Source: Eledone cirrhosa (Eukaryota). Taken from it: a DNA stretch of 64,000 nucleotides. The stretch is from assembly GCA_964016885.1 (NCBI GenBank), contig OZ024749.1:39928001-39992000 (forward strand), read 5' to 3'. The translations under genes and the position numbers were made by a program. The notes under the pieces were generated by a model that did not search any database, had not been told where the DNA came from, and saw nothing but the letters and a program-made list of their open reading frames with translations. Numbering within the stretch: position 1 is the first letter of the stretch; the number at the start of each line of letters is the position of its first letter. Positions 21,777-59,653 of the stretch are shown here, one piece after another.

Positions 21777-21900
21777 TAGGAAAAGAGTCAGGACCCCGAC
21801 GGCTGAGCTCCGGCCGTTTCGACAGCTAGATCCGTCGAGGTACTGACTCTTTTCCTATTACCCACTCTACTACCTAGTTCCTTACCACACTTTCTTTGTT
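21777..21900. mobile_element. Family P fold-back fragment (probable Penelope-like pLTR piece)
   Basis: aggaaaagagtcaggaccccgacgg... followed by its reverse complement ...tgactcttttcctattacccactctac. TA-flanked. Confidence 0.65.
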
Positions 21901-21971
21901 TTATATATAACAGCAATGGTTGCATTCTTTAAGGGTATGTCAATATTTATTTATAAAACTGCTCTATATTA

Positions 21972-22036
21972 TATTTTATCTGATGAAAGCACACCATAAT
22001 TTAACTTGGTGTCCTTGAAATATGTATAATGAAATA
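21972..22036 (+). ncRNA. Type I hammerhead ribozyme motif (HHR1)
   Basis: Stem I tattttat/atgaaata; CTGATGA at 21980; stem II aagcacacca/tggtgtcctt (9/10 paired); GAAA at 22017; short stem III a-tatgta-t; AUA triplet, predicted cut after 22028. Confidence 0.8.
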
Positions 22037-23135
22037 AATATGGTTTTATAAATATAGTTTCCATTTGTTAATATATCGTATTTTTACTCCAATAATTTGT
22101 TGAGTGCTTTATATCAGTTATAAAAATATTTGCTTGTTGTATCCCAACAATTTAAATAGAACTTCTACATATATATATATATACATATATATATATATAT
22201 ATATATATATATATATATATATATATATATATATATATATATATGTGTGTGTGTGTATATATATATATATATACATATATATATATATATATATTAAAAT
22301 AACAGATTAAAGTTTAAGCAAAGAATCACTGCTTTCACCCTTAACGGGATCATACATACATACACACACACACATACACACATACACACACACATATATA
22401 TATATATATGCATATATATATATACATATATAGTATTAAATAGTATATATATATAGTATGTATATAGTATTAAATAGGTCGAAGGCCTTCGATCTATTTA
22501 ATACTATATAATGCTCCGGCTTGTACCATTTATACGTCACACACACACACACACACACACACACACACACGCACGCACGCACGCACGCACGCACGCACGC
22601 ACACACACACACACATATCTCTCTCTCTCTCTCTCTCTCTCTCTCTATATATATATATATATATATATATATATATATATATATATAAATCGTTATATGG
22701 AGACTTCTCTTTGAAATTGAAGTGTCTTGGCCAGTGATACCATACAGTGTAACCAACAGGAAACCAAGGTCGTTGACCTCCGTTACCATCACAACCACTA
22801 ATACCACCGTTACCAACACCACCACCAGCACTGCTGTTATTACCATTAAGACAATGCTATCATCCTCACCGCCATTACTACCATCTTGTCTTCTCTTCGT
22901 CAAACAGAGCAATGCAGTGACCACGTGACAAGGCAATGCCAGTTTCTTACATATTCCAAATACTAACCACACACACACACAGAGACATACACACACAGAG
23001 ACATACACACACAGAGACATACACACACAGAGACATACACACACAGAGACATACACACACAGAGACATACACACACACAGACATACAGACAGACACACTT
23101 TTTGTAGCGGCCAAGATAAATTTTTATCATTTTGA

Positions 23136-23315
23136 GGATCGGACGCCATGCTTTGACGCATAGAGTTACGGCCCTTGTCATTCTGACTTCAAATCCCGCC
23201 GAGCTTAACTTTTTCCTTTCATCCTTACGGGGTCGATAAAATAAAGTACCAGTAATGCACTGGCTAATCGCTGGCCTTGTGCCTAAAGTAGAAACAATTA
23301 TTATTATTATTATCA
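23136..23315 (+). mobile_element. tRNA-derived SINE (major family), 5' truncated
   Basis: B-box-like ttcaaatccc, central ctttcatccttacggggtcgataaaataaagtaccag, (ATT)n tail. Confidence 0.85.
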
Positions 23316-23349
23316 TTAAGGTTGGTGTCATGGTCGCTTTTCTTGATCT

Positions 23350-23892
23350 ACTCGTTGCTATTACTGCTGTTGTTGTTGCTGTTGCTGGTGCTGCTGCTGT
23401 TGTTGTTGTTGTTGCTGCTGCTGTTATTGTTGCTGCTGCTGTTAATGCTGGTATTGTTGTTGTTGCTGCTGTTGTCGTCGTTGTTGTCATCATCTTTGTT
23501 GCTGTTACCATCATCATTGTTGTTGTTGTTGTTGTTGTTGTTGTTGTTGTTGTTGTTGTTGTTGTTGTTGTTGTTGTTGTTGTTGTTGTTGTTGTTGTTG
23601 TTGTTGTTGTTGTTGTTGTTGTTGTTGTTGTTGTTGTTGTTGTTGTTGTTGTTGTTGTTGTTGTTGTTGTTGTTGTTGCTGCTGCTGCTGCTGCTGCTGC
23701 TGCTACTGCTGGTATTGTTGTTGTTGCTGCTGTTGTCGTCATTGTTGTCATCATCTTTGTTGCTGTTACCATCATTATTGCTGCTGCTGCTGCTGTTGTT
23801 GTTGTTGTTGTTGTTGTTGTTGTTGTTGTTGTTGTTGTTGTTGTTGTGTGCTGTTGTTGTTGTTGTCGTCGTCGTCGTCGTTGTTGTTGTTG
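23350..23892. repeat. (TTG)n/(CTG)n compound microsatellite with an internal duplication
   Basis: Direct inspection. Confidence 0.9.
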
Positions 23893-24055
23893 TAGAAGCA
23901 ATTATTTTAACTATGTATATATGTATGTACGCATGAATGCAAGAGTGCATGTATGTATTTATATATGTATTATGTATGTATTTGTTGCTATGATATGTCT
24001 ATCTGAATTAAACAAGCAAGAAGCATGGATTTGAAATATACCACACTATGAAAAT

Positions 24056-24231
24056 ATTTGTTTCTACTTTTGTCACAAGGCCAGCAATTACACCAGTGCA
24101 TTACTGGTACTTTATTTTATCGACCCCGTAAGGATGAAAGGCAAAGTTTACCTCGGCGGGATTTGAACTCAGACCATAAAGGGGCGTAACTCTTTGCTGC
24201 AAAGCATGGCGTCAGACCCTCTACCGATACT
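24056..24231 (-). mobile_element. tRNA-derived SINE (major family)
   Basis: Reverse complement of the same head, core and tail. Confidence 0.85.
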
Positions 24232-24379
24232 ATTGAGTCCTTCACACAACAATTTATCACGTCTGCTGATGTTGAATTAAAGACAAGACAGTTTGTCATT
24301 TGGGGTATCAGATCACGTGGCATGCCACGTGGGGTATCAAGTCTGTCACCCTTTCATCTTCCTCTTTTCTTTCATTGCC

Positions 24380-24572
24380 TAATAATTGTTTCTACTTTTG
24401 GCATGGCACAAGGCCAGCAATTACCTCAGTGCATTACTGGTACTTTAATTTATCGACCCCGTAAGGATGAAAGGTAAAGTTAACCTCGGTGGGATTTGAA
24501 CCCAGATCGTAAAGGGTCGAAACTCTGTGCTGCAAAGCATGGCGTCCGACCGCCTACCGATACTGCCAATCC
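24380..24572 (-). mobile_element. tRNA-derived SINE (major family)
   Basis: Reverse complement, including the head ggattggcagtatcggtag. Confidence 0.85.
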
Positions 24573-57243: not shown

Positions 57244-57329
57244 AAGAATATTCGTATAGAGACATCAGGGCAGCAAGAAGCTGACCATAATCCCATACTC
57301 CAGCACAGCCTTCCACAGTGTTAATGTTA

Positions 57330-57470
57330 AGGAGCATGGCTTAGTGGTTAGAGCATTGGGCTTGCAATCGAAAGGTTGTGAGTTCAATTCTCGGACCGGG
57401 TGATGTGTTGTTTCCTTGAGTAAGACACTTTATTTCACGTTGCTCCAGTTTACTCAGCTGTAGAAATGAG
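57330..57470 (+). mobile_element. Second tRNA-derived SINE family
   Basis: A-box tggcttagtggt, B-box gagttcaattc, then ccttgagtaagacactttatttcac. Confidence 0.7.
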
Positions 57471-57599
57471 ATGATAGGGACTGGGGTCCATATCTTTGAA
57501 TCCTCCAAGACATCTCCAACGAGATATACCTTGGAGGAGGCCAGCTAAAACTGCATTATGTGAGTTGTCACACACACACACACACACACACTTTCACAG

Positions 57600-57832
57600 C
57601 AGGTCCCAAAGAACGCGGTTTCGTATGCCTTTTCAAGGTCGACAAAACAAGAATATACTTCTTGGCAGTATTCCCACGATTTCTCGAGTACCCATGAGCT
57701 TGGCTGGTCACACTTTGGGATCCAGCCGAATCAGTTTGAGACGGTTGCTTCTGACAGGACCCGCTGGAAGGAGGGCTTGGGGACTCTGCTCCCACGACCC
57801 TTTCTGAAATAAGTGGGTGAAGAAAAAGAAGA
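57600..57832 (+). pseudogene. RTE-like LINE 3' remnant
   Basis: FGIQPNQFETVASDRTRWKE (A.DR..W motif) followed by a GAA-rich tail. Confidence 0.45.
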
Positions 57833-57844
57833 ATCTTCCAATGG

Positions 57845-58122
57845 TTGATAAAATAAAGTACCAGTTATGTACTGGGGTCGATATAATAAACTTTCCCAGC
57901 CCCACAATTTGCAGGCTTTGTGCCCAGATTAGAAACGCTGGACTGGCAGCATAGAGTTATGGCTCTTTACGTTCTGAGTTCAAATCCAGCCTAGTTTAGC
58001 TTTGCTTTTCATCCTTACGCGGTCGATAAAATAAAGTACCAGTCACGCACTGGGGTCGATTTAATCGACTTTCCCCTCCCCCTTCAAATTGCTGGTCTTG
58101 TGCCTATAGTAGCAACAATTAT
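57845..58122 (+). mobile_element. Two tandem truncated SINEs
   Basis: gataaaataaagtaccag...ctggggtcgat core occurs twice. Confidence 0.75.
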
Positions 58123-58732
58123 TGTAACATCACGGGAGAGTCATTTTAGTCATTCAAAAACATGTTTTTTTAAATGTGAAAAGTTTGTTGTAAAGGTTTT
58201 ATTACTGGTAGGCATTGCGGTTGTTTCATTTTATGTTTTTGTTATTTTAAATTTTACACATTTTTTTTATCCGGAAGCATTTTGCTTATTTCTTTGTTTT
58301 TAGTTGTCTTTTTTGTAAATTTTAGATTTTAGGTTGAATTAATTTCTAATATATTATTACAGTTATTATTATTTTAACATCATGGAAGAGTCATTAGTGA
58401 TTTTTAAAAAAATATATATATATATACAAATATAAAATATAAAAAAATATATATATAAATATAAAATATAAAAAAATATATATATATAAATATAAAATAA
58501 TAACAACATAAAATAAGAACAAAATAAAATAAAATAAGATGAAAACAAAATGTTAAATTCACTTTTACATTTATCATTTATTTAGTGGTGTCAAACGATT
58601 CTCCTCGTGGCATGGTCATTGACACAATTCATATGTATGTATTGTGTGTGTGTGTAGGCAGGGCCGGTGCTACCATACAGGCAAACTAGGGCGCTGATTT
58701 CAGGGGGCGCATTTCTCCAAATCAACAACATA

Positions 58733-58815
58733 TATTACCCACTCTACTACCCTAAGTATCGAGTACTCTGGTGCGATATGGTCCACCTGGTTCCTTACCA
58801 CACTTTCTTTGTTTC
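58733..58815. mobile_element. Family P fragment
   Basis: tattacccactctactaccctaagtatcgagtactctggtgcg...ccttaccacactttct. Confidence 0.7.
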
Positions 58816-59242
58816 ATATATAGATTAGTTCTTTCGTTGTTTTTGGTATTGTATGGTTGGGTTTTGCCTACCGCAATTTTCAATTTGTCAAGCTTTTTAA
58901 ACGTAATGTTATTACTCTAAGGACCTACCCTTATTGAGTGCTTTGCTACTCATTCCTTATTGTAGGTCGACTTTGCTTGGCGACAGCCGAAGCTTCGATT
59001 TTACTAAGCTTCCACTTATATATATATATATATATATATATATATATTTTCTTGGTTATGGTTTAGCAATGAGTCTTGTTTGATGGTGCTGTGAGTACAC
59101 AGGTGAAACTCTGTAGTAACAAGACTCATCACTTAACTTAAATATTAAACAATATTTAAACGCTACTTCGGTATTGAGTACTCTTTCTCATATCATTATC
59201 ATTATCACTCAGATACATACATACACTTATATATATACATAT

Positions 59243-59653
59243 ATAGGAAAAGAGTCAGGACCCCGACGGCTGAGCTCCGGCCGTTTCGACAGCTAGATCC
59301 GAACGTTCGGACCTTGCTGTCGAACCGGTCGGAGCTCAGCCGTCGGGGTCCTGACTCTTTTCCTATTACCCACTCTACTACCCTAAGTATCGAGTATTCT
59401 GGTGCGTAATAGTCCACTGGTTTCTTACCACACTTTCTTTGTATTATATATATATATATATATAACGAAGGAAATGTGGTAAGGAACCAGGTGGACCATA
59501 ACGCACCAAAGTACTCAATACTTGAAATAGTAGAGTGGGTAATAGGAACCAGTAAGACCCCGACAGCTGAGCTCAAGCCGTTTCGACGGCTAATTCTGGA
59601 ATTAGCCGTCGAAACGGCTTGAGCTCAGCTGTCGGGGTCTTACTGGTTCCTAT
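59243..59653. mobile_element. Two adjacent family P fold-back elements in alternating orientation
   Basis: Palindromes at 59243-59366 (imperfect) and 59542-59653 (perfect arms, 2-nt loop at 59597-59598). Their tails face each other across (TA)n. Confidence 0.8.

Follow-up and report, generated by a model that had tools for sequence, protein, structure and literature searches.

Head-to-head stubs of a Penelope-like element in Eledone cirrhosa and a presumed transcript start inside its hammerhead motif

We analysed a window of 64,000 nucleotides (nt) from the genome of Eledone cirrhosa (contig OZ024749.1, positions 39,928,001 to 39,992,000 of the forward strand), which holds seven short TA-bounded pieces of one dispersed family. 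These pieces stem from a Penelope-like element (PLE), and we propose that its inverted insertions form when two complementary DNAs (cDNAs), primed from both strands of a (TA)n target, run off an RNA start inside the element's own hammerhead ribozyme and are end-joined head to head; we put the probability of this reading at roughly 0.7. Positions in the element are numbered from the A of a TYAGTY word (+1), which lies 18 nt upstream of the G in GAAA. The proposal builds on a parent element with an intact open reading frame (ORF), a ribozyme motif in its terminal repeat, two fixed 3' ends at ~+60 and ~+143, and a pile-up of 5' ends at +1 to +9. A fuller picture, in which a promoter would start transcription in loop II of its own hammerhead, the RNA would carry a capped but dead 5' half-ribozyme, the whole 3' copy could cut the priming sites off the element body, the stubs would record twin priming on sense capped RNA and template jumps at run-off would rebuild tandem repeats, is more tentative, and we rate it slightly short of even odds.

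Window pieces and their parent element

All seven pieces described in the initial annotation (21777, 37058, 42251, 46023, 58733, 59243 and 59463) were found in place by window sequence comparison and are mutually homologous, with (TA)n flanking the arm ends both in the window and at genome loci. Three of the seven are palindromes with an axis just 5' of GAAA. The piece at 46023 consists of a subfamily B tail arm on the minus strand (46022..46164, +1 to +143) and an inverted short arm on the plus strand (46166..46219, ~+10 to +63). At 59243 a subfamily B short arm (59244..59304, minus, +2 to +62) is joined bluntly at +2/+2, with neither loop nor microhomology, to a tail arm starting at +2 (59305..59445, plus), and the piece at 59463 holds a tail arm of the young subfamily A (59462..59600, minus, +3 to +141) and its inverted short arm (59599..59653, plus, +7 to +61). 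The annotation had described this axis; it holds for these three but not for the other four pieces, two of which are asymmetric and two tail-only. In the asymmetric pieces the inverted short arm is near-complete or complete and the tail arm starts far downstream: at 21777 a tail-less subfamily B arm with the 3' hammerhead half (21777..21834, minus, +5 to +62) meets a tail arm (21832..21904, plus) that runs from +37 to +143 in (TA)n with an internal deletion of ~+80 to +112, and at 42251 a subfamily A arm reaching the presumed transcript start (42247..42306, minus, +2 to +61) is joined without palindromic overlap to a tail arm truncated at +100 (42306..42349, plus). The tail-only pieces at 37058 (37056..37140, minus, +59 to +143) and 58733 (58733..58813, plus, +59 to ~+140) are devoid of ribozyme sequence. 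Ten extra bases at 21767-21776, between the +62 end of a short arm and the TA run, resemble part of the subfamily A stem II, though that copy belongs to subfamily B.

The motif reported for the stubs (GAAA, stem III, GUC, GGGGUC) was confirmed, for example with GAAA at 59611-59614 and the GUC ending at 59633. CTGANGA is absent from all seven pieces on both strands searched. Every window piece starts at +1 or further 3', so that the UUGANAA strand is missing and none has a complete catalytic core; the stubs are therefore predicted not to self-cleave. An Rfam scan of the window returned 361 matches at E<=5, and the 150 of them that were listed all lay below the gathering score, were almost all microRNA models on (TA)n and included no hammerhead.

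The family is abundant. Across the 3.0-Gb genome, a 16-nt word from the tail is matched exactly 48,044 times (24,012 + 24,032) and its reversal 2 + 0 times, and thus its occurrence is not due to chance. About one-third of 100 listed arms, judged by eye, read past the axis into common upstream sequence. One locus, L091, carries an inverted arm, a terminal repeat, an intact ORF of 719 amino acids and a second terminal repeat in a unit of ~3.1 kb, which bears out the Penelope-like origin already suggested. Its single short ORF combines a reverse transcriptase (RT) with a C-terminal GIY-YIG endonuclease, and its predicted protein has RLRWR at 35, DKT at 117, YRDD at 348, CNCPDRSIC (CxCx5C) at 572, AYIG at 605, CNLC at 670 and CKH at 698. 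A feature set of this type (RLRWR/DKT/CxCx5C/CNLC/CKH) defines the Hydra clade of PLEs (Craig et al. 2021, PMC8557442), and the agreement extends to the RWK-type motif (RMRWK in homologues) with DKG changed to DKT, the CxCx5C linker, the lack of CCHH, CxxC and CxH around conserved E and N, a GIY-YIG core that in the protein alignment has no cysteine pair, and a hammerhead in the terminal repeat together with (TA)n insertion. The L091 protein has 2,054 homologues, and among the 120 listed many carry PF26215 and one PF01541. We thus classify the window pieces, from these features, as 5'-truncated ends of an autonomous Hydra-clade PLE. A short upstream frame from ATG to stop lies in the tail region of the leader (L091:5449-5490), and the main ORF begins at +232.

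Other assignments were rejected. A Neptune, Nematis or Poseidon PLE would have a CCHH motif in the endonuclease, which this protein lacks. Non-long-terminal-repeat retrozymes consist of non-coding units in tandem, every one of which carries a complete type I hammerhead (bioRxiv 2026.07.22.740005), whereas this family has dispersed head-to-head stubs and ORF-bearing parents. A reading as a short interspersed element transcribed by RNA polymerase III, based on tRNA and 5S box motifs, was abandoned once the ORF-bearing parent turned up.

The hammerhead motif of the full-length repeat

The full terminal repeat holds a complete predicted type I hammerhead motif with a U3-A8 core. Folded at minimum energy, the L091 repeat forms a type I three-way junction in the order ACCCC, UUGAGAA, long stem II, GAAA, stem III, GUC, GGGGU, with three stems around the hammerhead core, GAAA, a UH and a 3-8 pair. 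The stubs are hence the 3' half of a real type I hammerhead that has lost its 5' half, as the initial annotation held, and the stem I 5' strand that it foretold upstream was found as ACCCC. Its forecast for the core was not borne out: extending the consensus 5' revealed a complete core, which is UUGANAA with U3-A8, ~55 nt from GAAA, and not CTGANGA. A search of the genome for CTGANGA placed 6-36 nt from GAAA had 71 matches, and the 30 inspected were junction coincidences; as this search used the wrong core and too short a gap, it is no evidence against a ribozyme. Another search, limited to the subfamily with five C and with a spacer one base too long, returned 834 matches, most rows of which showed TTGANAA.

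In collecting 44 distinct complete copies we left the seven core bases open. Positions 4, 6 and 8 of the core are invariant in all 44, position 5 is kept in 42 and position 9 in 41, while any of the four bases can stand at position 7 (G 15, C 12, A 9, U 8). Position 3 is U in 36 copies, giving U3-A8, and C in the remaining eight, giving a C3/A8 mismatch; the GUC cleavage triplet is present in 39/44. Among 15 copies from both subfamilies, 92.7% of cells were paired, compared with 27-55% in slid controls. Four pairs of stem II change on both sides, with a covariation score reached by none of 500 shuffles, although kinship among the copies inflates this shuffle test. The C3/A8 mismatch subfamily was seen at L062, L094, L107, L157, L297, L305 and L314; since it has spread, it would suggest that cleavage is dispensable.

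Breakpoints, junctions and the formation of stubs

The 5' ends were described on 101 tail arms. These came from the window, from 16 stretches of 10 kb picked arbitrarily and, on contig C1, from the loci of the first 100 exact matches to the tail; one false match at +110 was kept. Among the 54 arms that reach +9, 47 end within the 16-nt stretch from -7 to +9 (p 5e-42; 47/57 if three excluded long arms in L091 and L092 are counted), against an end rate of 0.6% per base from +10 to +110. None of seven arms ends at -20 to -8, and long copies make up 7/54. In a replicate of 19 further 10-kb stretches, 13/18 arms end at -7 to +9 and none beyond -7. The pile-up at +1 to +9, inside stem II/loop II, is therefore real, and the breakpoints cluster relative to the ribozyme rather than lying uniformly, as had been expected. 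Loci L001-L030 were excluded from later counts, having come from a query that held the axis. Elsewhere, arms starting at +41 to +43, where cleavage is predicted, number 6/74 (p 0.002), a peak that the replicate of 18 arms lacks, and a slight excess lies at the tail start (8/87 ends, p 0.01); both excesses are weak and open to microhomology effects.

The 3' ends are also fixed. The inverted partner arm ends at +58 to +63 in 68/73 cases, full-length copies end there too, and each inverted insertion carries one ~+60 and one ~+143 end. Among 24 loci chosen for long copies, a biased choice scored by eye, 18 had one +61 and one +143 end, head to head. In these long copies the inversion axes (for example 930/562, 205/2221, 637/714 and 1216/728) range from +205 to +2,200; such unrelated axes over 3 kb indicate that inversion is a general property of integration. 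Both arms belonged to the same subfamily in 51 of the 52 pairs that could be typed among 66 examined, which argues that both came from one donor.

We suggest the following course of events. The messenger RNA would start at the A of TYAGTY in loop II, so that its leader would carry only the 3' half-ribozyme, yet both reverse-transcription start sites. The element protein would prime at ~+60 and ~+143 on opposite target strands (twin priming); priming in the leader would give run-off cDNAs of 60 and 143 nt, the stubs, and priming in the 3' repeat would give long copies, truncated at any point. End joining with small resections and insertions would then unite the cDNA ends. Tail-only pieces such as 37058 and 58733 may have arisen when cDNA synthesis halted at the +60 primer, or may be what a later deletion between the TA borders left of a palindrome. 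The stubs would hold half a ribozyme because the RNA probably starts mid-ribozyme and the copying enzyme runs off that end, and the link between ribozyme and breakpoint is more likely positional, the RNA starting there, than structural. Locus L370 starts at +4 and continues into the ORF as far as +959; a piece from +2 to +144 follows in tandem, and the locus also has an inverted partner arm that spans +2 to +61. The start at +4, continuous into the ORF, points to a leader-derived cDNA that ran off and jumped. At L370:6835-7996 the tandem piece is joined at +2 to the ORF-internal +959, a candidate template jump at run-off, and jumps of this type are a possible route to tandem terminal repeats.

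The surroundings of +1 are consistent with such a start. TY at -2/-1 is kept in 43 of the 44 complete copies, and the rest of loop II diverges between subfamilies. TYAGTY agrees at 5-6 of six positions with the Initiator TCAKTY, its A being +1, and +28 to +33 agree at five of six with the downstream promoter element range DSWYVY, both being Drosophila consensus sequences and thus from another phylum (table in PMC4581360). A TATA-like word lies at -29 in subfamily A and none in subfamily B. In L1 an extra G marks capped full-length 5' junctions (PMC11702581). Genome-wide, the cDNA base after +1 was C in 4,859 cases (CC excluded) and T in 1,041, neither being templated; in the count filtered by terminal W, C made up 3,150/4,919. 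By eye, an extra base occurred on both arms at eight loci among 100 rows. A splice-acceptor reading of TTAG/TCAG was ruled out, as the AG is retained in the arms and there is no common upstream exon.

Several points weigh against the proposed course of events. Both arms copy the same bases from one source, which needs strand displacement or two RNAs. The RNA start at TYAGTY and its cap are read from the DNA sequence, the promoter motifs, which come from Drosophila, are short and degenerate, and the cap evidence is suggestive only. In script-counted loci, C followed +1 in 17/30 and also +2 in 12/30; at loci not selected by junction the base after +1 was G in 13, C in eight and T in one. Among arms abutting (TA)n, counted by eye with duplicates merged, 27 join it directly, and C, G and T come after +1 in seven, five and two others. 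Partner arms often start with C, which inflates the C count, and the tallies of 63/100 against 25/100 were made by eye on lists filtered by terminal W, a filter that drops a common G class. In nine of 54 arms the end lies at -1 to -7, which calls for scattered starts or for microhomology by chance, negative end positions being partly an alignment slip into the partner arm. Some asymmetric arm pairs could be post-insertion deletions. The folding energy of the L091 repeat was no better than that of shuffles (z -0.25 to -1.67) and is by itself no evidence, and Pfam and PDB sequence searches with the L091 protein itself gave no relevant match.

A different cause of the 5' wall would be that RT is halted in loop II of a complete 3' ribozyme by structure or by a bound protein, with no transcript start there. 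The stop site is the base of the inner hairpin in subfamily A, and the start at +1 is itself deduced from sequence, both of which favour a stall. However, ends do not pile up at the stronger G-C stems (I, III and outer II), which RT passes, the inner hairpin consists largely of A-U pairs and subfamily B does not share it, the +4 start of L370 lies on RNA continuing into the ORF and hence in a 5' leader, and a stall does not predict the untemplated C excess. We regard a stall as improbable.

The initial annotation had proposed that the cDNA self-primes by folding back at the stem II hairpin, so that ribozyme structure would set the palindrome axis. Self-priming has been put forward for PLE palindromes (PMC3846280), the axis does lie within stem II/loop II, 5-8 nt from the inner hairpin apex in subfamily A, and one recurrent junction can be drawn as a 4-base-pair (bp) snap-back with a 6-nt loop (~10/100 rows, by eye). 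The axis is at TYAGTY in loop II, however, and not at the apex, which subfamily A has at -8 to -5 and subfamily B further upstream, in other sequence. The hairpin 5' of GAAA in the stubs is made by the head-to-head join and is not native stem II, whose 5' strand differs from it in sequence, and the native apical loop is kept in only 1/42 junctions. Subfamily B, despite its different loop II hairpin, ends at the same +1/+2 as subfamily A, and many of its junctions have a 0-1 nt spacer (by eye; 59304/59305 in the window) that cannot be a priming hairpin. In 26 of 71 arm pairs it is the tail-less arm that extends further 5', by >8 nt (window pieces 21777 and 42251 show this), in seven it is the tail arm, and 38 are level; a longer tail-less arm cannot come from a tail cDNA folding back, nor can a tail-less cDNA supply the tail. 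The fixed +60 end of the second arm is shared with full-length copies, and long-copy inversions occur anywhere along the element. As a general rule, fold-back is thus largely refuted, and we think it as improbable as a stall.

Least probable of all is that the stubs are copies of a few short non-autonomous palindromic masters with an inherited breakpoint: some axis sequences do recur, and most of the 30 best matches to the 59463 copy share its axis (the query held that axis), but 33 distinct spacers occur among 42 junctions, stubs and long copies are both found in every subfamily, and otherwise identical young copies differ solely at the axis.

Comparison with known systems and minor observations

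The element class, the build of an inverted copy plus tail and the U3-A8 core are already published. Like Hydra-clade PLEs such as Hydra-1_Obim, the Eledone family has a short single ORF with RWK-like motif, DKT, CxCx5C, CxxC and CxH and no CCHH, and it shares with them the repeat hammerhead, the (TA)n target and an inverted 5'-truncated copy plus tail at one end (PMC8557442). Hydra-1_Obim differs, by eye, in its leader, its CTGAAGA core and its short stem II. In contrast to the clade as described, the Eledone family has a U3-A8 core, ~55 nt of stem II plus loop and a tail of ~83 nt instead of 30-40, and most of its copies are stubs ending inside the ribozyme. The U3-A8 variant has been published for Cercyon PLEs of Schistosoma mansoni (Cervera and De la Pena 2014, PMC4209133), which agree with the Eledone motif in type I topology, U3-A8 covariation, an unpaired base at the 5' end of stem II and a palindromic loop 3. 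Unlike in Cercyon, stem III of the Eledone motif has 5-6 bp, enough for a monomer fold, the presumed transcript start falls within its long loop II, and a C3/A8 mismatch subfamily exists.

In vitro, a Poseidon PLE protein begins reverse transcription at two internal sites of the RNA and both cuts and extends the two strands, with uncut RNA serving as template (Frangieh et al. 2024, PMC11167929). Poseidon_Ac is thus alike in that two internal RT start sites define the tail and both target strands are extended; it belongs to another clade, and 5' run-off, inverted joins and a start inside the ribozyme are not the subject of that account. With L1 twin priming the case shares that both target ends prime on RNA and inverted pieces are end-joined (PMC11702581). 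Internal priming in L1 occurs at varying sites, and its two pieces usually lie without overlap; in Eledone the internal site does not vary, and the same 60 nt are copied in both arms. In Drosophila virilis Penelope, transcription starts within the terminal repeat at an Initiator and a downstream element (Schostak et al. 2008, PMC2377424), and the ribozyme lies downstream of the start, past an intron (PMC4209133); the Eledone start, in contrast, appears to split the ribozyme.

The origin of the inverted and tandem terminal repeats of PLEs is named as open in three of these accounts (PMC8557442, PMC3846280, PMC11167929), and an antisense self-priming model has been proposed for such repeats in this literature. 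Our literature search met no account of twin priming in PLEs or of a start inside a PLE hammerhead, though supplements, subscription papers and Repbase notes may bear on this. Tens of thousands of dated stubs, with two fixed priming sites and a fixed 5' wall, form a genomic read-out that favours twin priming with sense, capped RNA as template. If transcription starts inside the ribozyme, this would also suggest why the ribozyme can sit in the repeat at both RNA ends without decapping the RNA, and exact element positions are now available for testing the start and the priming sites.

Other repeats were noticed in passing. A second, unrelated hammerhead-like element lies in (TA)n at window positions 59069-59129 on the plus strand, with a 12-bp stem I, stem II, GAAA, a short stem III and a decayed TTGATGG core; a relative with an intact CTGATGA core is found in L230, and further pieces in L020 and L103. 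In L230 (G000:C22, near 4,416,661) a tail arm of the PLE family is fused to the ribozyme of this second family just past GAAAC, via a short shared word, which gives a chimeric motif and is possibly a cross-family template switch or a nested insertion. The start of the window is dominated, from ~381 on, by a long degenerate tandem array with a 9-nt period. Hydra-like ORF fragments with ~30-50% identity to the protein of the PLE family were seen in L097, L152, L192, L196, L348 and others, and by these fragments the Eledone cirrhosa genome has several further Hydra-like families.

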